Of a DNA stretch of 64,000 bases, positions 4,740 to 50,300 are shown piece by piece. The notes below the pieces were generated by a model. That model worked only from the letters and a program-made list of their open reading frames with translations, searched no databases and was not told the DNA's origin. The translations under genes and the position numbers were made by a program. Source of the DNA: an uncultured Planctomycetales bacterium (GTDB lineage Bacteria; Omnitrophota; Gorgyraeia; Zapsychrales; CAYRXT01); contig CAYRXT010000001.1 in the NCBI GenBank assembly GCA_964428315.1, positions 18,944-82,943 on the forward strand, given 5' to 3'. The number at the start of each line of letters is the position of its first letter. Position 1 is the stretch's first letter.

Positions 4740-4761
4740 GATTTCTAGACGGAGACAAACC

Positions 4762-5112: not shown

Positions 5113-5140
5113 CCCTCCGGGGCGCCAGCTGGGAGAGGAT

Positions 5141-11929: not shown

Positions 11930-11951
11930 TAAAACCCCTTCCACCTACGAG

Positions 11952-13696: not shown

Positions 13697-13702
13697 TATA
13701 AC

Positions 13703-26300: not shown

Positions 26301-29300
26301 ATGACGCCAAACGCCATTCCTTTATTATGAAGAAGACCGACGCCTACGGCAACGAGACCGGAGACATGGGGCTGTGGGAGTCCATGGCCATGCACGTTAT
26401 GTCCATGGCGCCCAACGGCGCGACGCTGGGGCCGCTTCTCGGCGTGGCGCAGATGCCGTTCACCGCCTTTGCCAGGGCCGGGGAAGGCGAAGCCGCGACA
26501 AAGACATTCGAGTTTATCGCCTCCAGGACACACACCATGCCTTTGACCGTCCTCCAGCTTGCGGGAACGGAGCTGGGCGCCGAGGCCCTTATCGCCCGTT
26601 CACAGTACGGCAAAAATCTCATCGCCGAGCACGGCAAGGACAAAGGCCACCAGATGATCAAGGGTATCGGCCAGCAGGTCGCCTTCATCAGCCTGTTCCT
26701 GAAGCCCAACGCCCGCGCCCTGTCGCCGACCCACAAAATTCTGGAAAAAATCAGCGTTGACACCAACGGCGCCCCGAAAAGGGTTATCAATCAAATCCGG
26801 TACCGCATAAGACAGATTAAGGAGAGAGGCGGATCCCCGTCCGAACTCGATGTCCAAAAGACCATGGAACAGGTCACTAATAAAGCTTTTACAAAATTCA
26901 CCGAAAGCGAGCTCAAGCTCATCAAACAGGGCCTGGAAATGGCCAAAAGGTCTCCGGAAGGGAAACTGGACGTCGATCAGTTGAACCGGATGGCCGACAA
27001 CAACATGATTGAGAATGGAGTGACCCCGGATTTCCTGAAAGGCGAGGAAAGCGTGTTCAAAATACACGAAGGCGAGACCTATCTCATGGAGACGTCCCAT
27101 CAGTTGGAGGGAATGCGGAGACAGATGAAGAAGCAGATCGCCGAAAAGGGCGCGGCGGACCCGAAACTTGTCAAAGATTACAGCGTTTTATACGACCATT
27201 TTACCCACCAGTATGAAATGGGCAAGATGGCAAGGCAGGTGGGTGTTCCTCTTAAATCCGTCGCTGACACGGCCTTGGACGGCCTGTTGGAGAAAGGCCT
27301 CGACCATTTGTTAACACAGAAGGACGGCCAGCGCTTCGAGATGGTGGTGCACTATTCGGGACGGGCAGGCGAGGCGACTCCCTCGGGAAAAAGGAAGACC
27401 GCCACCCTCAGTACCGAGTCCGGCACGGTCACCATCGACGGCAAGACAAGACCCCTGACGGAACAGACGTACAATGAATTCATGGACCGCGTCATCGCGG
27501 ACAAGAAGAGCGGCAAGATCGAGAGGATCGTCGAGATGGGCCTTGACCCGAACGCCATGTTCGAGGGGCAGGCCTCGTGCTATTCCGGCGTCGAGCATTA
27601 TGTTGTCGACGGGAAAATGGTCGACGTCAAGGTCTCGCGGATCTTCGCCAGGGACGCCCAGGCCATGGCTCATGAGACGGCCAAGCTGATGGTCTCCAGC
27701 CACCGGCGCGATCTCCGCGTACGGCAATCTCAGGGCGAGACACCCCGACACACGACGCAGACCGATGTCAGCGCGGCCGAACAATATGTCAATCCCGTGA
27801 TCGCCGCCGAGGGCACGGGCATGCGTCAGTTGGTCTTGGATACGGTCGGCCGGCGCAAAGTGCGGGCCCCGGAGGGCGAATACCGCTCCGGCAAGAATAA
27901 GACCGGCACGCCGCAGGCGCCCCTGCGCGCTTCCTTCGATTCCTTCGCCAGCCTTAACCATGGGGTGGATATCCTTCCTACCGGCGTTCTCCCCGAACAC
28001 CTTGTCAATCCTTCCCGGGAACAGATTTACGAGCAAAAAGAACAGGCCCAAAAAATCCGTTCCCAGATTATGTACCGCATCAAGCGGTATGAACAGAGGA
28101 CGGGAGATAAAAAGCTCGAGGGATTTGATATTGAAAGCGTCATGAACCAGATCGAGACCCGCGGCCGTACGAAGTGGAGCGAAAACGACCTTTTTTTGAT
28201 ACGGGAGTCTCTCGAGAGGGCCAAGGATACCGGCGGCAAGTGGGACCACACGGTCGACCAGATCTTCGGCGGGGCCATGGAGCTGAAGATTTCGGACCGT
28301 CTCCTTAAGGAAGGGTTCACGGCCCGGGCGGTCATCAATTCGCGCGCCGGCATCGGCAAGACGGAGTTTGCGCGGCCGATTGCCGCGGAGGTTGTTCGCC
28401 GGGCCGCGGTGCAGGGGAGCCAGCAGATCATGGTCTGGTCCACCACCACCAACAATCTCCAGAAGGCGATCGAATATTTCAGGGGAGACAACAGGGGAAA
28501 CAACAAGGAAAACAAAGGGCTCGGCCCGGATCGCGTCAAGCATGTCAAAGGCGACGGCCAGGCCATGGACAAGGCCCTCGAGGGCCTGGACGCCAAGCCC
28601 GGCGACATCATCGTGGTCGACCACGGTCAGCTTCAGATGCTGGCCAACGCCGGAAAACTGCGCGGCAAGTTCCTGTTTATCGACGAGCCGCAGGCGGGAT
28701 TCCAGTCTCCGGGCCTGAACGTCGGCCGCCTCAACGGCCAGGGGGCCAGGATTTTTAACGAGGTGCTGGACGCCAAAGGCCGCAAGGAGCGGGAAGGCCA
28801 GTACGATCATGACTGTGGCTTGTACGAGCTTCTGGCCACAAAGATCGAGGCCTATCAAAAAGCCAATGGAGAAGGTGCGGGAATCAAGACAAAGAGCGTG
28901 GAGGGCGTCGAGATCAGGGACCTCAGCCAGGTGGTGGATAAAATCAGGTTTGAAATAAAAAGCGAATGGAAGCAGACCAGACAATATAAAAAGAACCGTT
29001 ATTACGGCAAGGGCAAAAAATTCGACGGCGGCCGCAATTCCGCCGACCGCTACCTGGATATCCTGATCGACGCCGCGGCCGACATCTACTCGGCGAAGAC
29101 ATACGAAGTCACGATCGATAAGAAAACGGGTAAATACGAATCCTACGCGACAATCGACTCAAACACCGGGAAGAAGATGGAACGCACGATGTTCGGCGAC
29201 GACGGCACCGGCATGAACGCCAAGGCCAGGATGCTCATCGCCGGCAAGGCCTCGCGCACCAAGTCGTCGCGTCTGGAACTCCTTCATCACTACACGGAAG

Positions 29301-32300
29301 CCTCGTATCACCAGAGCGATATCTCGACCAATTTCATCAAGGCCGTCGAGCAGGCCGAAGGCTTCATCGCCCTGACGGCCACCGCCAATTCCTACAAGTC
29401 CACGTTTGACAAGCTGAACGCCGAGATTATCCAGACCGGCAAAAAAGAGGTCGATTACGCCGATATCCTGAACAAAACGCTGGATATCCGGGTCGATAAC
29501 CGTTCTCCGACCGAGACCATGCAGTCGGGGCTGGACCGTTTCTTCCAGGGTGAGACCAAAAAGTACGCGTCCGCCCTTAAGAAGCTGACGATCGTTGAGA
29601 GCCGCTTTAGGAAAGGGCGGGCCACTCAGTCGGAAGCGGACCACGCGCGCAAAGAACTTGAGACGGCTAAGAGCCGCATGGAAAAAGACATGACAGACCT
29701 CCTTATCCTTTCGACTAATGACGGCAAGGTGAGGGAGGCCCTGGAGACATACGCCTCTTCGCATGACATGAACGGCGGTAAATATGAGGTCGTGCGCGTT
29801 GAGACCAAGGAACAGCTCGCTTCCCTGCAGAAGCAGATCAAAAGCGAAGCGGAAAACGGCAGGGCCAAGAAGCGCATCGTCATTATGCAGGTTTACGACG
29901 GGATCAACCTGGCGGCGGACTACGGCAGCGGCAAGGGCCGTCTTATCCTGGGTAACCTGGCCTCGAGCGCCGATGCCCTCCAGGGTTTTCAGCGCGTCGG
30001 TGTCATAGCGGAGCTGGCCAAACGCCGCCTCCAGGGCCGCGCGGAATGGCTGATCTCGACCAAGGACAAGCGCATGACCGACGGCGAGTCCGCGAGGTTC
30101 AACGAATTTCTTTCCGCCCACGAGACGGCCAAAAGCGAACTGAAGGAGATCAGGAAAAAGGTCCGCCGTGGCGAGGCCGGTGAGGCTGACGTCCGGAGGG
30201 CCTCGGAGGCCCTGGCCGACGCCAGGACCAAGCTTGTCGCGGAATCCATGCGCGTCTCGGAAAGGATGGACCTGGAGGCGAACGACCGCAGTATCCGCAT
30301 GATGTCGCAGTCTTCAAAGATGTCCGCCAAGGAACTGCGCGACGCCGTGCACGACGCCGACATGGCCGTTCAGAAAAAGAACGCTGAATACTATTTCAGG
30401 CAGGCGGACAAGGACGGGCGGCGGCCGGAGACATTCGAAGTGACCAATCATGAAAATTCGGGCTACGACACGTACAGGGCCCTGCGCGACAAGTCGGGCC
30501 AGTTCACCGGGCTTGAGCACGTCGCCCTGACGGCGACCACCGCGCCGGTCCAGCTTGATCTGCAGGCTCAGCTCCAGCCCGGCCAGACGCTGAGCTTCAC
30601 CGAAGCGCTGTATGACAAAGACGGCGAGGAAACCGGACAGGTCATTTATGGTGAAGACAAACATGTCGCCGGTATTTACAAGACAGAGGTCATCCCGCAG
30701 GCCGGCGGCGAAAACGTCGAGATGGGCTTTGTCTACAACGTCGGAGAGGACAAGGCGTTCACGGCAGGGACGTTGTATGATATCAAGACAATCGACTATA
30801 TCAGACAGAAAGGGACTGATGCGCAGGAAGGCATCCTGCTGGTGAACGGCATGGGCGTCATCCATCTCGATAAGGACAATAAATTTTCTGTGGACGTTCA
30901 AAGCGGTCTTTACAGCATGCCTATCGAGGTCGACCGGATCGCGGGCCGCTTCGACCGCAAGAAAGAAAAGCTTATCAAGGACGAGGTCGTCCTGGCCGCC
31001 AGGCCGGAGGATTTCGCAAAAGAAGGCATTGAGGTACCGGAAGACGCTCTGCAGGCATTGGACAAAAAGGGCCGAGCCCGCGTGAGCCTGGCCGGGGATG
31101 TTTTCGAGAAAAAGTTCGGCGGCGGCTACAAGCTTATGAATGAGACAGTCAGCGCCTTTACACAGAACGCCTTTATCGCGAAGAGGCTCAGCGAAGACGC
31201 AAAAATCAATCGGGACAAGGCCAGGAAGGTCGCCGCGCACGCCCTGAAACGGATCCGTGATCGCAAACAGCGTCTCAGCAGGCTGAACATGGCCGGGGGA
31301 AAATACCAGGACAGGATGAACCAGCTAAACAATCTGGAAAACTATTTCGTGCAGACCCTGGATAATGATACGGAGAACTATAACCTGTATTACATCGACA
31401 TGGACAGCGACGAGATCAGGCAGGACTACATGGAGACCGTCGAGAAGATGGTTGAGCTGGCCGCGTATGATGAGGGGAGCTTGCTGACCATGCTCCAGGA
31501 TTCAAAGACGCCGGAACAGGACCGGCACGCCATTAAAGGGGTTATGGAACTCAGAAAGGAAGGGTTTGAGGTCAACCATATCCTTATAGACCGGTTTAAG
31601 AACTACGCGAAAGGACAAAGATTCGGAGGCCACAGCGGGTCCGGCGGACAGGGCCTCGGGCACAGCACCTATTTGACCAAAGACGCCCCGAAGTCCATTA
31701 ATATCTACAGCCAACAGGTCGGTTTGGACCGAAGCAAGCTTTCGGATCTGGATGCCATGGCCGAGGTGGCCATCCATGAGGCCATTACGGCCACAAAGAA
31801 AGACCAAAGCCATGAGATGGCGGTTGACCTTATTAAAGACATTTACGCGTGGGATAACTCTCTTCAGAATGTGGATATGGAGGACTTGAGCACAAAGACT
31901 GTGAAGGATGTCATCAATTTTCGCGGCGAGGAGTTGCAGTTTGGGGGGGGTATTGGCAATATCACTCTTGATATCCAGGAAGTCACCGAAGATGTGGACG
32001 GCATGAAAGGCCTGCGTCTTGCCCAGGCGAAGATCAATATTGATGCAAGACAAGATCGGATTTTCAATGGCCTGATCCGAAACGGCGATACGCTTGACCT
32101 CAACACGGGCGTAGTTACCCGTGAAAAAGAGACGGTGGCAGTCTTCGTTAACACAGACGTCCTTATCGGCAAGTCCAAGCAGGGCCTGCAGTCCAGCGGT
32201 TTCGACAGGCTGGTGGCGGTGCGGGACAACCATTTTGATCTCGGTTCCCCGTATGGGCCGAACTCCTGGCTGGGCCGGGTCTCGGGCGATATCGTCAACG

Positions 32301-35300
32301 GCGATATCGTGAACCGGCGGTATTTTGTCAATTATACTCCCGATGATGTAAAGGCCAGGGGCGTAGAGGTCAGCGGTACAGCGGAGGACGGCTCGCAGTC
32401 CGCCCTGAGTCATCACAACCTGGTGGATTTCCGGTATCATCTCGAACGGGAGGCCTATATAAACAATATGTATAAAAATCAGGGGCCGGCACCGGTCGTC
32501 GAGAGGGACACCTCGATGGCCGATGGTCCCGGTGGCATTACGCATGTCCCGGATATCCGGGTTGAGATGCCGTCTCTGTCTGTGCCGGGATCCGGCCTGC
32601 ACTCAACGGTGCCGTCCTCGTTATGGATGTCGGGGCAGGCGGATACAACAGATCAAAGGACAGGCGGCCCGGGGAATCGCCGGTTGGCCGCCGGGGAGGT
32701 TACGCGCAATACTATGCGAGAGGCCCTTGAACAATACAGCCTCGGCGGTTCGCCGTTGGCTGATTGGCTTATGCGTGAGCAGGCGACGGCGGCAGGTAAG
32801 CCCGTCCGCGCGGACGCGGACCATGCCATGAGCGATGATGTTCAAACAAAGCATACGCTGGGGCTGGGACCTGGGAGCGCGGTCGAAGATTTGACGGAGA
32901 TGTTACGGAAAAAAGCCTTGGAAGAGACAGGCCCATCAGATACCGGGACGGGTTCTCCTGTAATCCGGACCGCCAACGGCCGCGGTGATGTTCCGGTCCA
33001 TACAACACAAATCAATCCAGCACTGGCCTTAGGCGGCTGGAGTGGAAGAAACGGCCGGCCGGGTTTCAATCCAGAGCGGGCCGGAGACGTAACCGGCCCG
33101 ACGACCGGGACGGCCGGATTTGATCCCTCTTCTCTTGCGTCAAATCAAAACGGCAATCAAGAGACCGGAACAAATGGCGCGGATAGATCGGCAAACGCCC
33201 CAGCCGGTCCGGATTTTCAGGATGAATGGAGGGTCATAAAAGTCCCGGGCACCTCCGGCCGGCGGGTTAAGCTGGTGCGGCGGGACGATGCCCAACCTTC
33301 TGTGAGGATGGGCAAAAGAGGGGATCGACCGAATGCATTCCATGATGGCCGTGACTTTGATTTGCCAGATAGGTGGCAGTGGAGCGATGTCGTCCCTGAC
33401 CAAACTCGCGCGCCGGAAATTGCGCCTCAGCCGAAGGCTGTCCCACCGTCTCCCGAAGCCGGGATCGCGCTCATCGCGAAAAACCACGCGGTGAACGGGA
33501 TTATCCCGGTGTTGGACCTGAATTTGCACAACCTATCGTCTGGGCCCGACCGCGACTTCAACAGGGCCGACAACTTCATGGCGGAGGATGTGACGGCGGG
33601 GCTTCAACCGGGAAGTTTGTCGCAGGATCCCACGGACTGGAGGCGGGTGGTGGTGGGGGAAGGGGAAAAAAGGACCTGGCGTCAATTAGGGGGAGGGAAC
33701 AGTGTCGACCAAATGTTTGCTGGCCTTATAGAAAAACCTTACAAATCAAGAAGCATATATGTGCCGGTCATGGAACGCGACTCGAGGCTGGAGCAAGCCC
33801 AAAAGAAGCTGTCGGAGATAGGGGACGGACTGAAAGAATCCCTGGTGGATTTGGCTCCGGATAATAAAAATGTTCAGCGCGTTGCCGCTTCATTTCAATT
33901 CATTCCAGCAGAAAGCTATATAGATATCGTTGAATCCGAACCCGTGCCAGTGGCGGCGCAGTTGTTTGTGCCGAATATTCTTCTTATTCATCCGGCATTG
34001 ATAACGCAGCTGGGGGAACACGGAAGGCTAATCGCTAATCATGAAATCGGCCACGCGGTATCCGATTATCTTTTGCCGGTAACTATGGCGGACCTTAACA
34101 GAAAATTGAAACAAGACTATGCCGAGTGGGTTCAAAAGAATGGTGCCCAGTATGCCCAGTTGTGTATGCAAGATTTTGTTTCTAAGGTGAAAACCGGAAA
34201 TGTGCTTGAGCCCGGCTCTTTCGACAAAAGGACGCACCGCGAAATGACAAACCAATTCACACATTTAGCCCGGCGGGTTGCATATGTTAGTGAATATGCT
34301 GCGGACGCCATGGCGCGGATCCTTATGCTGCGTCAGACAGGAGAGGATATCAATTTGTTGGATTATTTGTGGCAGATCCAGGCAATAATGCGCCAAGAGG
34401 CGACCGCACAAATGCCGAAGGCAATGGCGTTTTGGGCAGGCGTGTCGGATTCTCTGTTGCCTGGGCGGCCATTGTTGCGATGGCGACGGCATTGGGGTGA
34501 AGCTTTTAAGCCGGAGACCAGTCATCCCAGTTATTATGCCAGGCATGTCGCTCTTCAACATTTCGGGACAGATAAGGTTGTTGAAGTGGAGCCACCTGAA
34601 ATTCATGGGGTGGAGGCCCGCGGAGACCACTTCATGGCGGAGGACGCGACACAGGCGCCGATGCCCACTCAAGGAGAGAGTATCCGGGAGTCCTTTCTCG
34701 CGCGGGCCGAATGGGAGCCTTCCACGGTGACGGGATCCTCCTTTCCCGGGGGGGCCGGTGCCGGCGTTCCCGATGACGCTATCGGCGCGGCCGTCCTTGA
34801 AGCAGTTGACGAATATCTGCGGGACACAGCCCGTCTCGGAAACGGCGGGCAGGAGGGGGTCAGGATCGATCCCGCCGGTTCGCCGCTGTTCCTGGATGTC
34901 CCGCGCACGCAAAAGGGCTCCCCTAAGATAAGACCATCCGCAGAAATCATCCTCCAGTATTTTCATGATACTAGTGGCGTCAGGACGGAAATGGAAGGGT
35001 TCGTGGAGGTCCTCAGCGGCTATCGAAGCGATCTCCCGCCAAACGCGCAAAAGAGTCTGGATCATTTGGCCGGGCTCGTGGGAGACCTGCGGGCCGAATT
35101 CGCGCCGGTTTATGGCGAACTCAATAGCAGGACAACCACCGGGCGTGAGAAAATGCGGTTATTCGGCAGGGCCCTTGAGATCACCCTTGAAAAGGGGCCG
35201 GAGATAAAGTCGGCGGCGGCGCGTCTGCAGGAAGCCATCCCGTCAAGCGGCGAATTTGAGGGTCTTCGGGACGATGCCGCGATCGTCTATAACGCGAGCG

Positions 35301-38300
35301 CCGGACTTTACCGCATGGCGGCGCATGCCGCCGGCCTGGGCGCGGAGCGCCGGGTGATGCTTCCCGATGATCCGTCTTATCTGCTCTCTCTTGTTCCCGG
35401 CGCATTTAAAGTGCGGCGAAAGGTCGGAATTAATTTTTCCACAAAGACAAATCAGCCGGTTGTTGTCCCTGCGGGTGCTGTAGGCCTTGCGTTTGGCAAT
35501 ATTAACGATCATGTCTCAAGTCATCCGGAGATAAACCAGTCAGATGTGAAAGTCGGCGTTTCTTTTACCCCCTTGGAAAACAAAGGCAAAGTGAAGCTCG
35601 TGATCAGCGATAACGGGCCCGGGATACCGCCGGCCATTTTGAGCAGAATATGGGATGCCGGCGTGACCTCGAAAGCGGATAGCATCGGCCACGGCCTTGG
35701 GATGGGGTCGATGTTGCGTCAGGTGACAGAAAACGGCGGTCGGATAAGGATCGACAGTACAGCAGGCGAAGGAACGGCGGTTACGATCGAAGCGGAACCC
35801 GCGGCACCCGGTCTTATCGTGAAAGAGATGATATTATCTGCCCTGGAAGGCGATCTTGATTCAGCGCGCTTGTTGCAAGGGGCGCTGGATGCGAAGACCC
35901 TGCCCGCGAGACAGGGAAAGAACTTTCAAGAAGCCCTTGTCCTCGCGGAGCTCCGGCTAAGGAATAGCGGGCTGCGGGAAGAGGCGAACAGCGTCGGGGT
36001 GCTGATGAAGGAGAATCCCGATACATTGCCGGAGGTCCTGCGGGAAGAAAAAAGCGCGGTTGATCCAGCCGGGCCCCGTGTCGTAGGTATGCAAGATATG
36101 ACAGATGGGTTTTTCGGCAGGCCCAGGGCGACGCACGGGCTTTCCGCGCTGGAGGTCCTGCGGGAAGAAGAAAGCGCGGTTGATCCAGCCGGGCCCCGTG
36201 TCGTAGGTATGCAAGATATGACAGATGGGTTTTTCGGCAGGCCCAGGATGACGCGCGGGCTTCCCGTCCCGCAAAAGCAGAGTTTAGTTAACATAGCTGG
36301 CTTAAAAAGCACAATTAGACGGATAGCTGAAAGTGCAGTCAACGATTATTTTGAAAGACAAGACTACGCGCCCGATTCGGAGGCCTCGTTCAGGCTGGAT
36401 GTGGAAAAAACAGCGTTCCTTCAAGGTGTTCAAAGATTAGAGGACGGCACCCTTACCGCGGAGAACGGACGCGCATGGGAAATTGCGAAGAGATTGGACG
36501 CTGTCCTGCATGATCTTAATAAGCCTGTTTCTTCGATGCTTCTTGTTGGTCAAATGCTTGAGTCTTATATGGGCGAAGATCCTTTATTAATCGATGAGGA
36601 ATCCGGGGCTGAGTGGTTGACCTCTGCCTTGAAGAAGTTCGCGGTAAAGTTCAAGGATGCCAGGAAAGCATATCAAGCAGGGGATCGGGGCTTGCTTCAG
36701 CTGGCACACCCCGATGAGGCCGTTATTGACTCTCTGCGCGGTAAAGTGGCATATCTAGAAGGCGTCGTCGACGCCATACTCAAACGGGCGCACCAGGTCA
36801 AGACGACGGCCGCTTATGTCCGGGACTATCTGGTTACGAACGCCGGGGGCTCGGAGGAGTTTGAAGACAGAAAAAACATGAAGGATTTTTTGACCCGCCT
36901 TGAGAAGGCGGCCGAACGCTCGATCCAGATCGCGCGTCAGGTCGCCGGACTGAGCGCGGAACGCAGAACCGTCATATCAACCCCGGAATGGCTGAAAGAA
37001 AATATATTCCTGGCAGGCCCTGTAGAGAAAATGGCCGGGGAATTAAAAATCGATTCGCAGATCGGGCCAAGGCCCCTTTTGCTTAATCCGCGGGTTTTTG
37101 ACAATCTTTTTTCTAATGTATTGGATCACGTTGTCCCTGGACGGGAAGGAAGCATCAGGGTCGACGTTTCTTATCAGCCCGCGGAAGGCCAGGACAATAT
37201 GGCCAAAATCGTTGTCTCTGACAACGGGCCGGGCCTAGATCCAAGCATCCAAAATCCTGAAGATATTTTTAATTATGGACGGACCACCCGGGACAGCGAA
37301 GCAGGCCACGGCATCGGAATGTATTCGGTGCGGTCCCTGGTCGAACAAGCCGGGGGACAAATCAGGGTCAGGAGCACTGCGGGAGAAGGCACGACGTTTA
37401 CGCTTCTTGTGCCGGTCGCGAAGGAGGAAGACATATTTGAAGAGGCGCTCCAGCAGGCCATGGAGGGCAATACGCGTTCAGCCTTGGAGTTGACGAAAAT
37501 GTTGAGCCTAGGTCCGGACTATTTTAGCGCTCTTGATAATGTTGAGCAGGCTCTGATTAATCTGGAGGAGAAGCAACAACAACCCGTCTTTGATTTGTAT
37601 GCCGCATTCCCGGAGTGGTTTTCACGTAAAGAAGAGACGCAGGACGTCGAGGCGGTCCCCGCCGACCACGCCATGGCCGATTCCGGGCCGGATGAGGTGC
37701 CGGCACTGGTGGTCGTGGATGCGATGGAAGGGCGGCCGGCACGCATGAGCAAGGTCTTACGGTCGCTCGGCATCGCGGCGGCGGTTACGTTTTTTACATT
37801 GCTTCCCCCCTTAAACAGTATGGCGCAGGATAAGATCGCTTTGGGGCAATATTCCACACAGGACGTCGCGGAGGTTTTCGCAAGGCAGTTGAGGGATGTT
37901 TTGGAGCAAGCCGGACATCCCGCGTCTGTCAGGCAGGCCCTTCTTGGCTATGCGTGGAAGGCCGGCTTTCCGGGTGAAGATTTTGCCGGACTCAGCACTG
38001 AGGAAAAAATAGACAGGACCGTCAACAGGCTGATCAGAGAGACCTGGGGTCTGCGTCCTTTGCCTCTGGCCGAGATTCCCTCAAATGTTGAAGAACAGGA
38101 AAAATATAACATGCTGGAGTTGGAGCCCATCCGGAACAATCAGGCCCTGTGCATGGCCTTTGCCGACGCGGTCGTGTCATACCTCAGGGCCGCGGATGTG
38201 GACGCGACGCCTATGAAAATACCCGGCAGGGGTTCACTGGGGCATCACGTGGTCGCCGTGAGAGACGGCGCATATGGTTTTATCATTGACCCGGCGGTCG

Positions 38301-41300
38301 TGGGTGACGGCCCGGCTATCGTCAGCAAACGGTTCGTCTGGGATGAGGCCTTTACGCTCGGGGAAGACGGTTTCTATGTTATGAACCCGGACGCGCCGGA
38401 TATCTTCCATGAAGGGACGGTCAGGGATCCCGCGTATTACGCCCGATTAACTGAGGTGTCCGGTAAAAATACCATCGGGATCAAGAACCGTTATGAGGAG
38501 CAATTGGATAAGGCCTGGGAACTGCAGGCGGCCGGTGTAGAGAGGTTTAACACAAATAAGAAAAAAGGTAACCTGCCTGAGAAAATCGCAGTAGCTCAGG
38601 CAGGGCTGGAGCAGTATACCCTGGCGGTCCAAGCTTTTCAAGAGACAAAAGAATGCTGGGAGGAAAACAGCGAGGCATTACGCGAACGGTATGTGTTTCC
38701 CGATGAGGAGGAGGGTAATCTGCGAGAGGTTATCATGTCCTCGCAAGCGAACATGGCAAAGATGACGAAGTTCCTCGAGTATCTTCAACGAGAGCAGGAA
38801 AAGATATCCCAGGTGGCCGCCGAACATGCCGCGCCGGAATCCGACAACCACATGGCGGAAGACAACGCCGAGCCGGATTATTATGATTTAGAGACACTTA
38901 TTAAGGATCGGGCCTACGGCTCATGGACGGTCTCGGCCGTTCGCGAAGAGCTGAAGAAGCTCCTGGCCATGAAGAGATGGATGATAAACGCCGTGAGGAT
39001 CGATCCCCTGACCGGGCTTTACAATCGGGCCGGTCTGGAAGAAAAGCGGAACCGGTTGAGAGAACTGCTGGCGCGCGAGGAGGAAAACCGGGCCCTGGCG
39101 CACTTGATGCTGGACATTGATTATTTCGGGGCCTTTAACAAGATTTTTGACCAGGAGACGGGCGACAGGGTTCTGGAGGGTTTTGCCCGTGCCATTAGAA
39201 GGACAATAAGGGACGGGGACGTGGCGGCGCGTGTCGGAGGCGAGGAGTTTTCCCTCGTCCTGCCCGGAACGAATATGGAAGAGGCGGAATCGCTTGACCA
39301 ACGGATCCGCGAGGAGCTTGCCGGAACAGAGAATCCATTATTCGGGGATCTTAACAGAAAGCAGTTTGTTCAGTGGCGCTTGAACGGGGTGATGCGTAAG
39401 ATAAAGGAAAGAACGATCCGCAATAGTGACGATATCAAAAACATAAAAGCCGCCCTTGTTCACCAGCTCCATGTCCAGGATATCCTTGAAAAGGAAAAAG
39501 CGGAGAAAATGGCCATACACGAACTTCCCATCGGTAAGTTGCGGAAATGGGTCGTGACCTACAGCGCGGGCGCGGCGGAGTACAGCGAATTCCAAGCGGC
39601 AGGAAACGCTTTGCGGTTCCTTGACGCCGCGGCGGATCGGGCTCTGTATGCGGCCAAGCAAGGTGGCCGCAATAAGACGGCCCGGTTCCAAGGCACGATT
39701 GATAAGTTTGAAGAGGAGAATGAAATATCGCCGGCCGGGCCCGCTTCTGGGGGGCTTGAACTTTCCGGAATCGACTGGGCCGATAGTGAAGTGGAGAAAA
39801 AAAGAAAAAAGACGCTGATTCGGGATATAAACAAGGTGAAGCAAGACCTGCAGGTCCTTAGGCCTTTGACCGAGACGGATCCTCTCACCGGCCTTGCCAA
39901 CAGAAGGGGGGGTGCCTTTTCTTTCGCCGCGACGCGGTCTCTGCTTGCTCACGCCTTGAGGAAACGGCATCTGTCCATAGCCTTATTGGATCTGGACCAT
40001 TTTAAGGTTATAAACGACATTTTCGGCCATGACGGGGGAGACCGGGTCTTGAGTTTTCTGGGAAAAGTTTTGGGGGATAAGATTCGGGGCATGGATCTCG
40101 CCGCAAGGTTCGGGGGCGAGGAGTTCACCCTGGTCGCGCCTCATGCCCGTCCGAGCGAGATGGCGGGGGTCACAGAGCGGATAAGACAAGCTTTGCGCAA
40201 TGATTCTCTTGTTCCGGACTTTTTGAGCGACCGCGAAACCATCCATACAAGGATTAAAGAGATCATTAAAAAGGGCGACACGAGAGATATGAGCAAAACC
40301 GCCGCCGCGGTCAGGCTTCAGTTGATCACGCAGGGGCTGGCCGAAGCGGGGGATCTGGTGGACAAAGGACTGGAAGACTTGCCATGGCATAAACTTGAAA
40401 AATGGATCGTGACCTTCAGCAGCGGTATCGCCGGTTATTCCGTTGCTCATAATCGGGAGGAAGGCACCCCTGCCTGGCAGGAGGCAGGGAAGCGTGCCGA
40501 AGAGAAGCGCAAGGAGGCCAAGCACGGGGGCCGGGACACTGACGAGGTAGACGATAGTGGCGGTTTCACCGAAGATGTTCAGGCAATAGGCGAGGTTTGG
40601 TTCGACGAAAACAACAGACCACAGGTAAAATTACCATCCCCCGACAATGACCGTGACGTTAATATGGCTGAGAGTATTGAAGCCGGACAAGCGGCAGGTA
40701 CGGCGGTACGGAACACCGGCTCAGTATCGTTGGGCGGTCCGGGAAAGCTTCCGCCGGGCAGTTCGGTGGAGACGGGTTCACGGCCGCCTACGCCGGAGGA
40801 GTTGTCGGCGCATAGGGGAGATGCGGGATCTTCCGGGCCACCCGCATGGGCCTCTCATCCCGCCGTGGGGGACAAGGGTCCCTTGGGCAGTTCAACCTTT
40901 AGCACGGTCATGCCGGTGCGGAAAGATGACGGTGCGGCCGGCGATGTCGGCAGTACCGTGTTCATGGGCAGTATGCCGGTGTCCATGAAGCTTCTGGCCC
41001 GGGTGACCGCCGATGCCGTGGTTTCGACGGCGGACCTCAGGGAAGATATCCTGCGCATCCTGGAGAAGGACCCGCGCACGCTGATCCGCTATACCCACAA
41101 CGGCCGCGATTTCTACGCGCTGACGCGCGATGAACAGGGCCGCGTCCGGGTCGAATCCATAAGCCCCGACGACGTGCTCGCCGAGATCAAGGCCAAGAAG
41201 CAGGTCGCGCTGTTGGCCAACCCGTACACCCTGTACCCGGACAACCCCGATTATCCCGAACACGTGGACACCCCTGTCAGGCAGGCCGTGGCCGCGGCCG

Positions 41301-44300
41301 AGCAGGTCAATGAGGACATCTTCGGCGTGTTTGCCGGCCGGCAGAAGCCGGGGCGCGGCGCCGCGCGGACCGGAGGACAGGCCGGTGACGGCACGTTTGA
41401 GGCCCCGGGCGCGCTTCCCGGCGAAACTCCTTTTATCCCGGGAACGCCCGCCATGCCGGTCAACCCGGTCAGCCCGGTCAATCCCCTGCTCCACATGGGC
41501 ATCATGATCTTCGGCATGATCGGCGGCGGCGCGGACGAGTTCCTCGGAAGGACGCTGGGCCGTTCACAGAAGCATAAGAGCCGGCAGAGGGGCCTGATCG
41601 AACTGGCGGCGCGCCGTATCAGCAAAAACTTCGCAGAGGAAGCCCCGGTCACGGTGAGGGACGTGGACACGGGCCTTGTGCCTGAAGAGAAAGAATTTTT
41701 GTACATGATGGAGGAGGACACCAATTTCGCCCTCCGGCTTCGGGATAAGATCATTGTCCCTCCGGAACCGGGGAAAGACCACGATCCCCGCGGCCCGCCG
41801 GAACGCCCTGAGCGCGATGTCTTTATGGTCGAAGATGTCCCGCCTGCTCTGCCCGGGAGCGTTTTCTCCAACGTCAGGCCCATCGAGAAGGTCGAAGTCC
41901 CCGCGTCATTATATCCTTACGAAGAAAAAATCAAACCGGCCGGTCAAAGAAGGACCCAGTTCTCCGAGATCGATGCCGTCGACAAAGCGTCCGACCTCCT
42001 TGACGGGGCCGCGAAGGCCGGCGACATATCAGACGAGGTGCGGCACATGTGGGTCCAGTTATTCGAGCTGAACAGCGATGAGGACGGAAAGCTGTTGATC
42101 GGCTACCGCCCGGACCAGATCTTCCTCGACCAGATCCTCTTTGAAGACAAGATCGGCATCCTCGAGAACGCCAGGGGCAAGTCCGCCGTCCTCGCGAACC
42201 AGTCCATCCGCAACGTCCGCAAGGGCCATAATACCCTCCTGGTTGCCAAGAACATCGCGCAGTATACCGGAGACGCCGACGCCCCGTTCGTCAAGAGCTG
42301 GAACGAGACGGCCCGGCATATCCTGAAAGACGACGGGGCCGCCTTCATGGACCTGGACAAACTCTTCGAGACCTGGAAGAAGGCGAAGGGTCCGGAGCGG
42401 GACGAACTCGAGAGGGAGATGCTGGAAGCGCTGAAAGATCCCCGGAAGGTCAAGGTGGTCACGAAGGATACCATCGGGTACATGCTCCTCCATTTTATGA
42501 AATACGGGGAGTTTGAGCTTTTGGGCGCGCTGACAAAGCTCGTGCTGGAAGGCAAAGGCGTCGTGGACGAGATCGACGAGGTTTACCTGGCCACGGTCAA
42601 GAGCTACATCATTGCCCTGGGTTCCGGCGAGGAGATCCCGGCCCTGGTGCGGATGCACGAAAAACAGCTCGAGAAGCTCTTCAAGCGGCTGAACATGGAG
42701 GGCAGCAGCGAGCCCCACGCCTTCGACCGCGATTCGCGCTGGCCGGTCATCCACCGGGCCGAGACACCGGAAGAGTTCGAGGCGTACCAGAAAAAGAGCA
42801 AGCTGGCCTATTACGCCGGTCCCACGGGCGGCCCCATGGTCACCGGCCACCACGATTTTCTCCTCACCGAGGCCGTGTACCAGCACCGGGCGTTCAGGAA
42901 CATGTCGAGGAACATGGTTTACCAGGCCGCCAAGGCCAAGGTCGAGCCCCTCACGGCCAACATCACCTTCGCGGAGGACGAGAACGGCAAGATCGTCAGG
43001 CTCGGCCACCAGGAGATCGCCGGAAAGCTCGTGGAGAACATGCGCGTCTCCAACATCCCCTACATGGTCATCAAGGCCAAGCAGTACGGTGTGAATATCA
43101 AGGACCTGCCCTTCTCGGAAGGTTCGTCGCTTTCGGTGGCCATGACGCACGCCTTTTCCAAGAACGTGGTCGGCGTGTCCGCGACCAACATCGGGCTGGT
43201 CGCCTTGCTCGGCCTCACCGGCAAGCGCATCGCGGTCATCAAGTCGAGCGACATCCTGGAACAGATCGCCATGTCGCCGGAAGACCCCGGTTATAAGACA
43301 AAGTACGTGAAGATCGTCCATGACGACGGCGCGGACGTCCAGGATGAAAGGCTGAAGACCCTGGTGCTGGAGAAGCTGGGCAAGGGCGGATTTTCCGATG
43401 GAATATACTGGGAATTCTCCATCTTCGCCGCGAAGCCGGACGAGCGCGAGCGCGTCAGGAGGGCCGTTAACGCGGCGATTGATGCCACCGTCAAAGGGGA
43501 TGACGGTCAGGGCCTTGTCAAACCGGTCCTGGTCAACCTGTCCACGAACACACCGGAAGAAGACAAAAAGCTCATCGCCCGCAACGAAGAACTGCCCACG
43601 GACACGGAAGACGAGAAACTGAACCGGACCAACAAAGAAAAGAACAGGCGCTACCGCCTCGGCCACCCCCGCAGGATCATCCTCTGGTCCTTCGACGCCA
43701 AGAAGGCCCTCACCGTGAAAGGCAAGAGGAGCGTCAACATCCAGTTCGGCCTGGACGACACCCTGGACTCCGCCGCGCACGGCTCCAAGCGGACCCAGCG
43801 CGACGATGACGACATCGAGGGCGAGCGCTACCTCTTCCTAGAGACCGGGGCCCTCAAGAAGAAGCTGGCCACCGTGCCGACCGTGGTCCTCGCCTTCGAA
43901 GAGCTGATCAATAAAAACCGTGACCTCCTTGAAAGGCTCGGCCTCGGGGAGGACGTCCTCAAGGAGAACGTCCACGTCTTCATGGACCATTTCAAAGGAA
44001 AAGTCCTTGGCGCCGGCCTCCTGGAGAAGGAGGAGTTCACCCGCCAGGAGATGATCGAAATGTACACGGCCCTGGTCAGGTACAACACCATCCTCCAGGT
44101 CAACGTCACCACCAAGGCCAGGATCAACGCCCTGAACAAGGACACCCGGATCGTGGACCGCGTCCAGGAATGGATCGAGAGGAACAAAAAACTCCTGTCC
44201 CAAGCGGAGGAGCGGCACGACAGGGACGGGGTCAAAATGTACAAGAACAATGCCGCCATCCTGGAGACGCTTTACCGCCAGGTCACCTGGGGCCTTTTTG

Positions 44301-47300
44301 AGGGCGAGGACAAGCTTTCCCTGGACCCGGTCACCGGCGGCGGCTGGGCCTTCAAGGCCTCGGAGATGAGCTGGAAGAACGTCCTGCAGATGTGCGAGAC
44401 CGCGCTCAAACTGCGCGAGAACGGCCAGGGGCTGTCACAAAAACTGCGGTACATGGTGGAGGCCCACGCGAACCTGGCCAAGGACCGCATGGAATGGGAG
44501 ATGAAAAACACCACGGAGATCCTGAGGTTTTCCGACTTGACGCGGGTCATGACCGGCCTCAAGGATTCCGTCAAGTCTGAGGGCATGACCGCGGCGGATT
44601 ACGAGAACCTCTACCGCTTCAGCGTGGAGATGGCCGAGGTGACGCTCCTGCCCACCCGGGTCGTCTCCGACACCCCGAAATCGGCCCTTTACGCCCTGCC
44701 GGCCGAGATGCAGTCCGTGGGCCGCGACCTAGAGACCGTGACGCTCGACGAACTGCCCGCCTATCTGCGGACACTGTGGCAGGACCTCTCGGACAAGTTT
44801 GAGACAGGGGCGCAGGGCTTCGACGCCTGGATCCGCGCGGACGGAGGAGGCAAACAGATACGGGATATCATCGAACAATACGGCTGGCTCGTGCCCGGGA
44901 CTCGGAAGCTGGGCGAGCACGCGGTCCAGTTTGTGCGCATGGCCCTCGATTTCATGGCGCGGCCCGTGGAGGTCCGGGAGAAGCTGGTGGCCCTGGCCGG
45001 CGCGCGCTCGCCGCTCGAGGCCGCCTACAAGCTGTTTGTCAGCGGGATCACCAGCCAGAGGACCCTGATGCTTTTGGTCTTCATGTACAGTTTTTACGTG
45101 GAGAAACTGGAAGGCGGGGGCCTGAGCCTGAAGCAGCTGCGGGAGGTTATGACAGCCGTTGCCGACAGGCCCCACGAGCTGGCCGTCGAAGTGGCCCGGC
45201 GCATGGGGCTGGAAGAAAGTTACATCATCCGGAACTTTGAACAGTGGTTCAGGGATGAAGGCTTCGGGGAGCTCACCGAGGAATACCTCGAGGAATGGAG
45301 CGACGCGCTGAAGCACGAAAACAGGATCAGCCGTCTCCTGCGCGGCAGGATCGCCAACGCGCGCCAGCATTTCAGGCAGAAGAAGGTCCGGGAGACCGTG
45401 AGCCGGCTCATGAACCTGTGGGCGCCGCCGCTCAAGAAGATCGAAGGCCTCCTGGAGCGGGTGCGGAAGTCCGCCGTCATGGATGACCTTTCCCACGTGG
45501 AGCTCATGAGCATCATGGGCGTGAACCCCCCGATGAACAAGGTGCTGGGCCTCAGCGGGCGTTACAAACATTTTCTTGAATCCGCGCGCGAGGTGTTTTC
45601 GGACAAACACTACCGAAAACAGACCGTGCCGACCATCGCGTACCTCGCCGCCTTCCCGCGCAACATCGTCAGTTTTATCATGAGGCCGCGGCAGAGACAA
45701 GATAACCTGGGGACGGTCGGCGCGCAGAAGGCCGTCGAACAGGAAATGGCCTTCATCGCCGAACACGGGTTTGTCCCTGTCAGCGAGATCAGGGCCCTCC
45801 TCCGGGAGAGGATGACGTCCGATGAGCGGGGTGATACTAAGGACCTCTCAAAGGGCGACGCCGGCAGACTGCGTGAGCTGATCGGCCGCGCGGTGGACGG
45901 ACATGTCGCCGCGGAGCGGTTCCTGCGCAGTCCCGAACTCGCGAAATATCTCTCCCGGGTGCGCGTCGTCATCCGGGGCCGCCTCAACAGCAAGACGGAG
46001 ACCGACGAGAATAAAAAGGAAAAACACGTCAAGGGCGTGCTCGAAGACTTGGCGGACAAACTGGGCGCGCTGGAAGAGGACGTGGACGAACAGGGGTTCC
46101 TTGAGAGGGTAACCGGGGAACCGGGGATCACAATTGTTCAGATCGAGCGGATCCACAACATGATCCGAGACTGGCACGAAAAGACAGGGCTGGACATCGA
46201 ACTGTCCCTCGACTCGGTCCTGCGCGCCGGTATTGACGCGCTGGAAGAATACCTGGCCGCGTACGCGGAATTCAGGCAGGAAGAACTTGACGTTGAGGCA
46301 TTAATAGAAGGGACTAGGAAAGCCGGACCGGATGCCGCGTCCTTGGAGGATGTCCTCAAGGGTAAAGACAGCCGGGGGGCGCGGGGGGCGGTTTTTGAGG
46401 CCGTGGAGCGGGGCAGTCTGCCGTTGCGCGCCGCTTTGGCCCAGCTCAAGGACGCGGCCGTCATGGCGTTCAGACAGCGCGGGGCCGCCGAGCAGAAGGC
46501 CAGGGAGGCATCCATTGTTATCGGGCATAACACAAAGAACCGCGTCAACGTGGTCAACACGACGGGTATCCGGGGACGGAGCGGGTTTGCCGCGCTCCTT
46601 GAAAAGCTGGAGACGTTCATGGAGAATGTCTCCTACTACACAAGGGGCCTGCCCGTGTCCGATATTGTCCGTCAGATCAAGCTCGTGGAGGGTTCGGACA
46701 ACCTCTGGTCCTTCACCGTGCCGCCGGCGGACGTGGGCCTGGAAGAAGGCGAGGTAGACCTCAGGCTGGATATCTCCGCGCTCGAATGGTCCCCGGTTGA
46801 GCAGGCGGCGCTGGCCGTCCTTTTGGCCCGGAGCCTGAACGACCGTGAGAGCCAGCTGGCAAAAAAGATTGACAGGGAAGGGGCCGCCGGAGAGCAGGCC
46901 AGGGAGCTTGCGGACATTCTGTGGGGAGGCGAGAAAAACTCGTTCAACCACAAGGACCTGGCCGGGCTCAGGAAGGCGTTGGACGACATACTTGATGTCA
47001 TCAGTGAAAAGGCCGGTAAAGCGGATATCAGGAAACTCGCAAGAAAGATCCGCGGCATACTGAAGAAGGCTGATAAGCAGGACAAAGGCGCTCAATGGGC
47101 GGACAAGGAGATCCAGACGCTGTTGAAGAAATTTTTACACAGGTTTCAGAAGACGCTGGATGAAGACTCCATTAAGCATTCCGTCAGGACCGCGGCAGAG
47201 GAGGCCCTGGGGGTCGTGTGGGACAACAACGCCGGCCTTCTTAACGATGCCGCCGAAAAAGACAAAACCAAGGACAAGGACAAGGATGATGACGAGGATG

Positions 47301-50300
47301 ATGATTCTCCGCTCTGTTCTTTCGATGAGGAGACCGTCGACGGGGTTGCAAAGCACATACGGGATCTGATAAATGAAGAATACGGTGACATCGTCCGCGG
47401 ACGGGTTGAAGAGAGATCAGGGTATAAAAGCAGAGAGGATGCCGCGGATCAGCAGAGTTCATCGGAGGCCGCCGAAACCGTTGATAAAGGAGAAAAGGCT
47501 GAAGGCGGAACTGGGGCTGCGGAGAACCAGTCCGGAGAGAAAAAGGACGAGAAGACAGAGGAGGAACCACAGTCAGCGCCGAGCGATGGGGACACAGGGA
47601 CCCGGGCCGCGGATCAGACTGACGATCACCCCAGCGAAGGGGCAGGTTCGGGCACGGCAGAGGAAACAAAAACAGAGGATTCAAAGGCAGACGCCAAACC
47701 GCGTTCGTTCCGTGAGAAGGTTGTCCGCTTCTTCAGAGGCAACGGCGAGAAGGCGCGCGAGGTAAGCCGTCAAGTCAAAAAAGACGCCGAAGATAAGCTG
47801 AAAAAACTTTACGCTAACCATGATAGTAATGAAAAGAAACGATTGAGAGGGAAGACTCTCAGCGAAAGCCGCGGGCGCGAGGTCTATGGGCCGAAGGGGC
47901 TGGGACGCCTGTTCGATATTTTGACCAGGACGCGGTATTTCCGTATCAATCTGCCCTTTATCGGCTATTTTTACTGGGGTTACGACGGCAGGGGCTTTTA
48001 CGCGAACAAGGAGATCAGGGACGAGGAAGGCAGCACCGCCACTTTCCCGCTCCCCTCCGTCGTGGTGGCAACCGGGGGCGGGCTGACCTATTTCGACTTG
48101 ACGGACCTGGCTCCGGCTGTCGCCGGGTTTTTCATCGGCGGACCGGCCGGCGCCGCGGCCGGCCTGTGGATGGCGGCGAGCAGTCTTTTTCAGCACGAGG
48201 TCAAGGGCCCGGTGGTCGGGTTTGTTTCGGGCCACGCGCGGACCGCGGCCATGTACGGGCGCAAGGCTTCGTCCACGGCGATTTCTCTCTTCGGCGGCGT
48301 CAACAAGGTCAACCTTGACGGGCTGGCGGTGTGGCGGAAACTGCGCGTTATGGCGGCCGGCCCCATGGCTAACCTCCTGGGCGCGGGCGTGGCGGTCTTT
48401 CTTGGCGCCCTTCTGGGCGGTCTGGGATTCGAATCCCTGGCCGGCGTCCTGAGCGGCGCGTCGGATTTCAGCTCTTTCGGCGCCATGATAGCCAGCATGG
48501 GACAGAACATCGCCGGGCTGGTGCAGTCCGTGGGCAGCGGGCTGTGGTTCTCGCTCGATTTTTACCAGAACATCAACCTCCTTACCCTGAACCTGTTCCT
48601 GGCCCTGTTCAACCTCCTGCCGTTCGGGTTTACCGACGGCGGACGCATGCTGAGTGAAGGCCTTACCGCGTTGCTGAAGTCCACGTTGTACAGGAACGAC
48701 GCTTACGGCGCGGAGCGCGCGGCCAAGACCGTGATGAAATGGTGGACACGCTCCGCGGGCTTGATCGGGGTCGCCGCCCTCGCGGTCAGCGGGATAGACT
48801 GGATCGCGGCGTTCAGGACCGGAGGCGGCGTGCTCCTGGGCGGGACCCTTGTTCTCGGGACCGCCGGTTATCTGGCCGGGAAGATGATCAAAAAGTTGAC
48901 CAACGCCCGGGTTCCGGCTGCCGTGAGATACCTTAGAAACGGCATGCTGATAGCGGCCGGTTCGGTTGTCGCGCTTCATTTTGGGGCGATGCTGTTCAGC
49001 CACGCGGCGGCGTCCGCGGCCGGGAGCGTCGCGCAAGGCCGGCTGCCGGCCTCGGTTTTCCTGAGCGCCGCGGCGATAGCCCTGATCGCGAAGATCATCA
49101 AGAAAGACAGCGCCATTGGCCGCGTGGTCAGGCCCATGACGACACGCGTTTTCTGGAGCGGCCTGGTCATGGGTATTCTGGTCATAGGGGGCAACATGGG
49201 GCTTGTCTCGCTCGGGGCCGGGTCTGGGGCGGCCGCGGGACTCAAGGTCTTTGAGGGCGTTATGCAGAATTTGAACGGCCTGGCGCCGGCGATGCTGAAC
49301 GGCGCGGCCTCCTTCCTCGGGCTGACGGCCCTGGCGCCGTTCGCGGGTCATGTCGCTGGACACTGGCTGTTTGCCTCCGGGGCCCTGAGGGTCCTCGTGG
49401 TCGGCCTGGTGTCCGAATTCATGGACAACGATCCCTACAGCCACGGCAATAACACCGATGACGAATATCAGGACGGTGAACTTCACGGTAGTCTTTTCCC
49501 CAATGTTTTCAATATAGGGACATCTCTGCTCAGGACAGCGGCTGATATAACCGGAGAAGACGGCGATCCTCATTGGCAGCAGGTGAGCGTGACCGATCCC
49601 GGGCTGTCAGATTTTGGACCGGGACCGGATGAAGACGGTTATGTGCCTGACGCCGTCGGCATGCCCTTGCCGCCGGCTCCGGCCGCGGGTCCTTTGATCC
49701 CGGGGACGCAGACGCCGTTATATTTCTTTGAGCCGTCTTCTTCGACGTTTCCGCTGATCTTCGGCGCGACGACTCCGGGCCCTGACGGAATGAGAATGAC
49801 AGTGGCCTCGGCTTCGCGCGGGGACGCCGATCCCTTCCAGGCGGCCACGACCGACAGGGGCCCGTTTGCCAATGTCAATTCCGCCGCGCCGGTCGAACCG
49901 GTGCCGCCGAACCCCGGCTCCGGTAATAACAACCCGGGCGGTCCGGGAGGCGGGAATCCTCACGCGGTGATCGCCTTTGTCAATAGTCAGGCAGGCGACC
50001 GTGCCGCTGTGGCACATTCCAGTGTTACCGATCCGAATATCTCAGGTTATCGTTGGACTCTATCGACATCTAGCAATGTCAAAGCGTCACATTATATGTC
50101 AGGCAACACAAGTCCCACGCCGTTTCGCGCTGCCGCCCTTTCCACAAAGGGTCAGGCAGGGAACGCAGTAGAGTGGATCATTGATCAAACAGGAAGAGCA
50201 GTACGTGTAACAGTACACGCAGTTGCTGGTCTGATTTTGCCGACGCCGGTGTACGCGGCTGAGGTGAAAGACAGTGAAGTCTCTAACACGCTTATCGGCA

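Follow-up and report, generated by a model that had tools for sequence, protein, structure and literature searches.

Why does a block of nucleotide-signaling domains lie in the middle of a giant open reading frame (ORF), and what could it do there? The question is raised by a 64,000-nucleotide stretch of DNA, referred to in the following as the window, from an uncultured bacterium deposited as Planctomycetales and placed by GTDB in the Omnitrophota (assembly GCA_964428315.1, contig CAYRXT010000001.1, positions 18,944 to 82,943 of the forward strand). An earlier note, made from the letters alone, had described the block, at about 35.4–40.6 kb of the window, as a complete two-component-like system with two GGDEF domains, probably of different origin from the DNA around it. 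Our analysis favors, with a probability of roughly 0.6, the reading that the block is a cyclic di-GMP (c-di-GMP) signaling cassette and part of an Omnitrophota giant protein that is fronted by a C39 peptidase domain and associated with a Tad locus.

The block proved to be embedded in-frame in the giant ORF, as the earlier note had claimed, and does not consist of separate genes. One frame on the + strand is free of stop codons from 14330 to 64000 (16,557 codons) and is open at the window end, while the runner-up among the open stretches of all six frames has 1,041 codons. Pfam matches to the signaling domains fell within this frame, where the note had placed them, and searches with NCBIfam models and against PDB sequences gave a concordant picture.

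Both GGDEF domains, which lie in tandem on the + strand, matched Pfam family PF00990 above its cut-off of 23.8 bits, the first at ≈38999–39350 (E 6.5e-31, 107.7 bits) and the second at ≈39875–40200 (E 5.8e-28, 98.1 bits). The pair also scored 207 bits with the NCBIfam model TIGR00254. GGDEF 1 (38975..39712) contains DPLTGL at 39002, DIDYF..N at 39110, the inhibitory site (I-site) RDGD at 39209 and the active site (A-site) GGEEF at 39236, followed by an insertion at ≈39338–39547 (with ALVHQLHVQ at 39452), then WVVTYSAGA at 39548 and YAAKQGGRN at 39647. GGDEF 2 (40540 being its last position and 39851 its first) has the same order: DPLTGL at 39878, DLDHFKVIN at 39986, I-site RGMD at 40085, A-site GGEEF at 40112, the insertion at ≈40217–40402, WIVTFSSGI at 40403 and KEAKHGGRD at 40511. 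The I-site stands five residues before the A-site in both domains (RDGD-VAARV-GGEEF and RGMD-LAARF-GGEEF) and aligned to the I-site context of WspR. Both domains keep the D-x-LT-x-L-x-NR motif, the DxD metal site, the guanine-reading Asn and Asp, and the AK..GR[ND] C-terminal helix. The Mg2+ and GTP ligands, equivalent to PleD D327, N335, D344, K442 and R446, are thereby present. Across an alignment of 10 related domains, the catalytic and I-site residues were invariant or nearly so. The Pfam matches and the alignments to PleD and WspR thus agree with the earlier description of two tandem GGDEF domains, each with GGEEF and RxxD, and show that the predicted sequence determinants of diguanylate cyclase activity and of product inhibition are all intact. 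A third GGEEF string occurs in the window at 23741–23755 (PGGEEFTLVSH). It has no GGDEF context and no Pfam match, and it was rejected as a third cyclase and attributed to chance.

The two domains are old paralogues with 34% identity over 233 residues, a stretch that takes in an insertion common to both. This insertion comprises ≈65 extra residues (60–70), carries a conserved k.AiiHQl.vQ motif, and separates the helix that follows GGEEF from the W[VI][VI]T.SAG strand. The Pfam matches end at profile position ≈110–117 of 161 because the ≈60–70-residue insertion splits each GGDEF domain. An AlphaFold2 model of GGDEF 1, made from a 10-sequence alignment, had a mean predicted local distance difference test (pLDDT) score of 88.9, with the insertion modeled as confident helices. 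When this model was compared with solved structures by Foldseek, the template modeling score was 0.84–0.86 normalized to the target (TMt) for WspR, PleD, 3ign and DosC, at 21–28% identity. Normalized to the query (TMq), it was only ≈0.6, because the solved GGDEF structures lack the insertion. Each GGDEF domain is preceded by a predicted helical stalk.

An exhaustive HMMER search found the insertion-bearing GGDEF variant in a handful of proteins, namely MCD4779131.1 (P0044), HPN56380.1 (P0023), MFA5150660.1 (P0110), MFA5725804.1 (P0121), P0025 and P0026, and all of the named ones are from Omnitrophota. The pair in the window is colinear with the tandem pairs of P0023, P0025, P0026 and P0044 at 26–32% identity over 424–580 residues, and P0044 is a complete stand-alone gene of 1,278 residues with housekeeping genes around it. 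Since the tandem pair recurs colinearly in four proteins, it represents a conserved cassette and no local accident; sequence comparison shows this putative cyclase cassette to have named homologues in Omnitrophota only. A metagenome scan with the GGDEF alignment, used as a generic pattern, returned ordinary GGDEF loci, and four apparent full-length matches were discarded as they lacked the insertion.

Upstream of the GGDEF pair are two kinase-like units, both on the + strand. Their HATPase_c domains, of the Bergerat fold, matched Pfam above the gathering cut-off at ≈35493–35795 (E 4e-13, 50.1 bits) and ≈37091–37420 (E 2e-20, 73.6 bits). Unit 1 (34961..35800) begins with the His-containing helix FHDTSG (34961–34978) and continues through a helical region into the HATPase_c domain, with N box GNINDHV at 35495, G1 box DNGPGI at 35609, G2 box GHGLGMG at 35687 and GEGT at 35765. 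Unit 2 (36440..37440) has an H-box-like helix LHDLNKPVSSM (36506–36538), ≈200 residues of helices that include RAHQVKT (36785), and a catalytic domain with its N box at 37109, G1 box DNGPGL at 37220, G2 box GHGIGMY at 37304 and GEGT at 37382. The presence of all three boxes, together with the Pfam scores, upholds the claim of two HATPase_c domains with intact G1 and G2 boxes. The units are old paralogues, with 30% identity over 246 residues (E 3e-26) in a region that takes in the helix before and the tail after the domain, and the N-box Asn, G1 (DNGPG) and G2 (GHGxGM) were invariant in six of six related units. In profile–profile comparisons with canonical kinases, the catalytic domain alone aligned (hhalign probability 99.9).

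Which histidine might be phosphorylated is less straightforward. The earlier note had named LHDLNKPVSSM as a clear H-box, and the helix is present as described; as an H-box it fares less well, since hidden Markov model (HMM) alignments of unit 2 to FixL and RstB put the canonical phospho-His position on RAHQVKT rather than on LHDL. That RAHQV His (36791), which has canonical spacing, is not kept in unit 1, where the sequence reads KGPEIKS, or in the relatives. The pattern [FL]HD[LT] occurs only twice in the ORF, at 34961 and 36506 (His codons at 34964 and 36509), and its His aligns with the conserved His of an sfgHG motif in the tandem kinase-like units of P0158, a complete stand-alone gene with four such units, and of P0014, an Omnitrophica fragment. 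One of these two relatives is thus from Omnitrophota. We conclude that the units are predicted histidine kinase-type ATPases, that they belong to a non-canonical family which occurs in tandem repeats and has a conserved His as candidate for phosphorylation, and that their kinase function is putative.

Taken together, these features suggest that the block most likely serves product-inhibited c-di-GMP synthesis, as judged by its conserved residues. The GGDEF pair would make c-di-GMP under feedback from the I-sites. As each GGDEF domain supplies one GTP half-site, the two may form an intramolecular pseudo-dimer, in which case there would be no need for a protein of >16,000 residues to homodimerize. 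ATP binding is expected of the ATPase units, which may also phosphorylate themselves on the conserved His, although no receiver domain is there to accept the phosphate. Probable targets of the output are receptors of the PilZ type, reported to lie downstream of genes like this one, as well as attachment or Tad-pilus behavior.

Several observations weigh against this reading. GGDEF 1 has a Gly at the usual Lys position of the DxFK motif. The only HisKA match, on the LHDLNKPV helix, stayed below threshold (E 0.14; 12.7 bits, where 26.9 are required). In the AlphaFold2 model of unit 2, made from a 6-sequence alignment, everything before the catalytic domain is helical, but with a pLDDT of 48 the model is unreliable. 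No receiver (Response_reg) domain was found by Pfam across the 16.5k residues of the ORF or in the upstream genes. The membrane topology is also awkward: by hydropathy, the N-terminal transmembrane (TM) helix predicts an N-in/C-out orientation with no strong TM segment between residue 48 and the block, and a hydrophobic segment at 37745–37828 would put the kinase-like units and the GGDEF domains on opposite sides of the membrane, with some of these domains possibly outside the cell. Such a naive topology is contradictory, because both kinds of domain need cytoplasmic nucleotides; the same difficulty has been noted for other giant proteins (West-Roberts et al. 2023, 10.1101/2023.11.21.568195). 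The whole block, with kinase-like units and GGDEF pair together, was not found elsewhere as a unit, and only its sub-cassettes recur. Finally, independent assembly support reaches window position 36080 and no further.

Without a receiver domain, the description of the block as a complete two-component system does not hold, nor was there a significant HisKA or DHp match to sustain it. One candidate for a hidden receiver, a weak PDB match to the DctD receiver (E 1.3), was dropped because Pfam gave it no support. The missing receiver and canonical DHp also lend some weight to a non-enzymatic explanation, in which the GGDEF domains are c-di-GMP-binding receptors (through the I-site) or scaffolds, and the HATPase_c domains are pseudokinases or ATP-dependent clamps without phosphotransfer. 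Consistent with it, the family-conserved His precedes the G1 box by 215–237 residues, a longer distance than the roughly 130–160 residues between phospho-His and G1 in canonical kinases; each GGDEF domain is split by a large insertion; and the naive topology may put the domains where nucleotides are unavailable. However, all the catalytic residues tested are kept in both GGDEF domains and throughout the family, and no variation was seen in the N, G1 and G2 boxes. Degenerate GGDEF receptors typically lose the GGDEF motif. We therefore consider the non-enzymatic explanation quite improbable and retain the c-di-GMP signaling cassette as the preferred reading.

Is the block native to this genome, or even correctly assembled? 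No other 5.2-kb window of the ORF has a GC content as low as that of the block (0.546; mean 0.591, standard deviation 0.021), and the deficit sits in the third codon position (GC3), at 0.615 against ≈0.75. The earlier note was thus right that the segment is AT-richer and the profile not uniform; its boundaries, in contrast, were drawn too narrowly. A two-state likelihood scan (2*deltaLL 282) delimited a low-GC3 island of ≈9.3 kb at 31538..40868 on the + strand, with GC3 of 0.615 against 0.766 in the rest of the ORF. Its 3' edge is sharp, at ≈40.75 kb just after GGDEF 2, and its 5' edge is gradual and lies 4 kb upstream of the block. Amino-acid composition is alike inside and outside the island, so that the difference is one of synonymous codon use.

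The sharp step in GC3 could be a sign of an assembly artefact or a recent foreign insertion, that is, a chimeric join or an acquired non-Omnitrophota fragment that happened to stay in frame. The same DNA is present in the Logan assemblies of SRR7048225 and SRR7048224, 100% identical over window positions 1–21929, and the short-read Logan contig SRR7048225_981 ends, by arithmetic, at 36080, within a 120-nt duplication; the short-read assembly thus breaks inside the block. With the whole block as query, a word-indexed homologue search brought up only generic GGDEF and kinase proteins, and a comparison of the whole block with GTDB genomes gave no close relative, which also counts for an artefact or a foreign fragment. 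Against this, the Logan contig, judged by its length, continues across the 5' boundary of the island and through kinase-like unit 1, the frame runs for 16,557 codons without a stop, and the nearest named relatives of the sub-cassettes are from Omnitrophota. Furthermore, the non-giant genes upstream have GC3 values of 0.55–0.83 (mean 0.70), and since the island falls within the range of these adjacent genes, it is not out of range for the genome. An artefact or a recent foreign insertion is accordingly very improbable in our view, and if the "module of different origin" of the earlier note is taken to mean foreign DNA, the codon usage and the Omnitrophota affiliation of the best named homologues speak against it. 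Both features point to mosaicism within the phylum rather than to a foreign origin. From the low GC3 and a private linker motif described below, we infer that the ≈9-kb island went through a separate history inside the phylum, by mosaic recombination or by fusion of once-separate genes. Flanking direct repeats bounding the island were sought by a repeat search and not found. Just 3' of the island, the segment at 41900–45500 has GC3 of 0.83–0.90 and GC at the second codon position (GC2) of ≈0.34–0.38, with no Pfam match. The compositional mosaicism of the ORF extends well past the block.

The linker motif, D[HN]xM[AS][ED][DS], occurs five times in the island on the + strand: as DHAMSDD at 32819..32839, DNFMAED at 33569..33589, DHFMAED at 34625..34645 just upstream of kinase-like unit 1, DHAMADS at 37664..37684 after kinase-like unit 2 and before the signal-peptide-like segment, and DNHMAED at 38843..38863 just upstream of the GGDEF pair. 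A looser copy, DVNMAES (40655..40675, + strand), follows GGDEF 2 where the island ends on its 3' side, and one further copy lies outside the island at 55172. The modules set apart by the motif are one with an HExxH motif, the double kinase-like unit, a signal-peptide-plus-orphan module and the GGDEF pair.

This arrangement raises the possibility that the giant ORF is a polyprotein or a fused gene, in other words a string of proteins that were formerly independent or are released separately even now, with the motifs as processing sites or relic junctions. The block would then yield a double kinase-like product of ≈1,013 residues, a secreted orphan-domain product of ≈393 residues with its own signal peptide, and a di-GGDEF cyclase of ≈604 residues. 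The six motif copies compare with 0.096 expected (shuffle maximum 2) and with none in 156,577 residues of the other proteins compared. Five of the six are in the island (P ≈0.001), each in a linker exactly between modules, and an independent repeat search recovered three of them. An internal Met and a signal-peptide-like segment follow 25 residues past one of the copies. Moreover, both the di-GGDEF cassette (P0044) and the tandem kinase-like units (P0158) exist as stand-alone genes, and other Omnitrophota fragments have their own recurrent linker, SSSP[IV]; the one in P0158, AAGPAS, is different again. In P0110 (residues ≈1295–1320), an SSSP linker is followed by a Met and a twin-arginine-like MDRRGFLKLAG. 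The motif was, however, defined post hoc, it is nearly absent from the remaining 81% of the ORF, and we know of no protease with D[HN]xMAED specificity; C39 peptidases cut after Gly-Gly. Inspection of the sequences also showed no consistent Shine–Dalgarno upstream of the motif ATGs, and internal translation starts at these ATGs were rejected for want of a consistent ribosome-binding site before them. The linker motifs thus support a chain of the polyprotein or fused-gene type without proving it, and we regard separate release or relic fusion as a rather doubtful account of the ORF as a whole.

A broader and more speculative version, which we think unlikely, is that the giant ORF is a modular chain in which lineage-specific motifs (D[HN]xMAED, SSSP[IV] and AAGPAS) mark junctions for cutting or exchange and the island is an exchangeable signaling cassette. 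If so, some modules would come with their own internal signal peptides, and the GGDEF pair would be a self-contained intramolecular cyclase, perhaps driven by receiver-less, non-canonical kinase units, that might even act after delivery into prey. In either case, the linker motif and the internal signal peptide offer a concrete proteomic route for asking whether giant ORFs are processed. For the block itself, we return to the c-di-GMP signaling cassette as the preferred reading.

The middle part of the block and the adjoining part of the island contain further features, all on the + strand. The 120-nt sequence mentioned above is an in-frame tandem duplication (36031..36266) of two copies, 95% identical, each with SAVDPAGPRVVGMQDMTDGFFGRPR in its translation, and belongs to the linker that joins kinase-like unit 1 to the H-box-like helix. 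The block is hydrophobic only at 37745..37828, in a segment that starts with Met and reads MSKVLRSLGIAAAVTFFTLLPPLNSMAQ; with a mean Kyte–Doolittle hydropathy of 1.52, this segment resembles a signal peptide or a TM segment. It is followed at 37829..38842 by an orphan domain of ≈300 residues and a predicted helical stalk. The orphan domain had no Pfam or NCBIfam match, a PDB sequence search gave nothing better than E 1.3, and a word-indexed search of a 5.8-billion-sequence database, in which 8,000 word-sharing candidates were scored, returned no homologue at E ≤ 0.001. Within the island upstream of the block, an unannotated module at 33578–34634 contains HEIGH, an HExxH motif read from the sequence only (34040..34054), preceded by a hydrophobic strand. 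The module is possibly a peptidase of the zincin type, although neither HMMs nor a PDB sequence search gave a significant match. In P0025, a comparable module with THEGTHAYL follows the GGDEF pair. Another linker string, PAGP[AR], has three copies in the ORF (36065, 36185 and 39731), all within the block, and the AAGPAS linkers of P0158 follow its catalytic domains at residues 911, 1637 and 2192.

The giant gene most likely starts at its first ATG, at 14348, which has an aaaggga sequence resembling a ribosome-binding site on its 5' side; open-frame scan, start context and Pfam together define the 5' part seen here as 14348..64000 on the + strand, or 16,551 codons. From this ATG, the protein has a basic N-terminus followed by a TM helix at residues 30–48 (by hydropathy). 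The domain order by Pfam is the TM helix and Peptidase_C39 near the N-terminus (E 7e-8), OmpA (≈19.8 kb), the signaling block, Peptidase_M50 with a TM cluster (≈48.2–49.4 kb), two FlgD_ig domains, TPR (≈59 kb) and SLT (≈61.5 kb). No SecA domain was found by Pfam in the 16,551 residues visible. The N-terminal 1,200 residues matched six partial C39 proteins at 29–43% identity, and all four of the named ones come from Omnitrophota or Omnitrophica metagenome-assembled genomes.

Elsewhere in the ORF, two TM-rich modules at 51529–52155 and 59740–60387, ≈8.2 kb apart, share 71–72% DNA identity and represent a paralogous duplication. Segments resembling Sec signal peptides, with a basic n-region, a hydrophobic core and an AxA-like end, also occur at ORF residues ≈12359, ≈12624, ≈15099 and ≈15425; together with the twin-arginine-like segment of P0110, they suggest that modules were derived from formerly separate secreted proteins. 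The minus strand from 16427 to 63214 has many long antisense open frames of up to 1,025 codons, which are most likely a by-product of the codon bias of the giant ORF rather than genes.

Directly 5' of the giant gene are two T2SSF (TadB/TadC-like) genes, identified by Pfam at 11069..12887 on the + strand. Farther upstream, seven small genes (..KGQST.EY..) at 2901–5473 form a Flp-type pilin array, with two more small genes of similar Flp type at 7198–7503 and 10632–10898; Class_IIIsignal gave only a faint match upstream of the giant gene. The leader before the giant gene (12888–14347) is 1.46 kb long, AT-rich (≈42% GC) and non-coding. Rfam found no riboswitch in the window or in the 1.5-kb leader, where the sole weak match was ctRNA_p42d (E 0.12).

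How does the locus compare with systems already described? As published, Omnitrophota giant proteins have an N-terminal C39 domain, many TM segments, SLT and TPR domains and a nearby type II secretion system (T2SS) locus with class-III signal peptides (West-Roberts et al. 2023, 10.1101/2023.11.21.568195); GGDEF and HATPase_c are frequent in them, and PilZ genes lie downstream (West-Roberts et al. 2023). Such giant ORFs have also been linked with Tad loci (Seymour et al. 2023, PMC10066038). Of the 779 long Omnitrophota proteins in a 2026 preprint (10.64898/2026.06.07.730766), 136 contain PF02518, and 65% have Pfam domains in repeats. The window agrees with this archaeovorin type in its N-terminal signal or TM segment and C39 domain, its TM clusters, SLT and TPR, its embedded HATPase_c and GGDEF domains and the adjoining T2SS/Tad-like locus of pilins with class-III signals, and the named homologues of its N-terminus are all from Omnitrophota. 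It differs in what can be seen: the type includes proteins of >30,000 residues, SecA-DEAD and downstream PilZ, whereas the window shows the first 16,551 residues, without SecA. GGDEF and HATPase_c had thus already been reported in such proteins (10.1101/2023.11.21.568195 and 10.64898/2026.06.07.730766), and a diguanylate cyclase inside a giant envelope protein is not the highly unusual find that the earlier note took it to be; in this respect the block is a further example.

The closest relatives of the GGDEF pair itself, P0044, P0023, P0110 and P0121, belong to the same insertion-bearing subfamily with intact GGEEF and RxxD, usually in a tandem pair colinear with that of the window. They are only 26–35% identical to the window pair, however, and none has kinase-like units beside the pair. 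The flanks differ as well: P0044 has a large N-terminal domain and a signal peptide, P0110 and P0121 each have a receiver domain, and methyltransferase-like or HD-like modules occur in others. The receiver–GGDEF proteins PleD (1W25) and WspR (3BRE) share with the block the GGDEF fold, the GGEEF A-site, an RxxD five residues upstream and the Mg2+/GTP ligands, whereas the block has no receiver, carries the ≈65-residue helical insertion, and has two catalytic domains in one chain. Canonical HisKA kinases (FixL/YF1 4GCZ, CckA, CpxA) have the same type of catalytic ATP-binding domain as the kinase-like units, which in turn show no significant DHp/HisKA, a His farther from G1, tandem repeats (as in P0158 and P0014) and no cognate receiver.

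Omnitrophota giant genes are the longest protein-coding genes known, and the signaling domains found in this one are not decayed remnants. The di-GGDEF cassette could be cloned and assayed by itself, and for c-di-GMP biology its helical insertion and tandem arrangement constitute a structural variant not described before. The archaeovorin papers, in their accessible portions, list domains and do not describe an insertion-bearing tandem GGDEF pair, non-canonical kinase-like units, a compositional island or a linker motif. GGDEF and HATPase_c domains were thus known from giant proteins of this kind, and the new details are the di-GGDEF cassette with its insertions, the kinase-like units of non-canonical type, and the low-GC3 island together with the linker motif that punctuates it.

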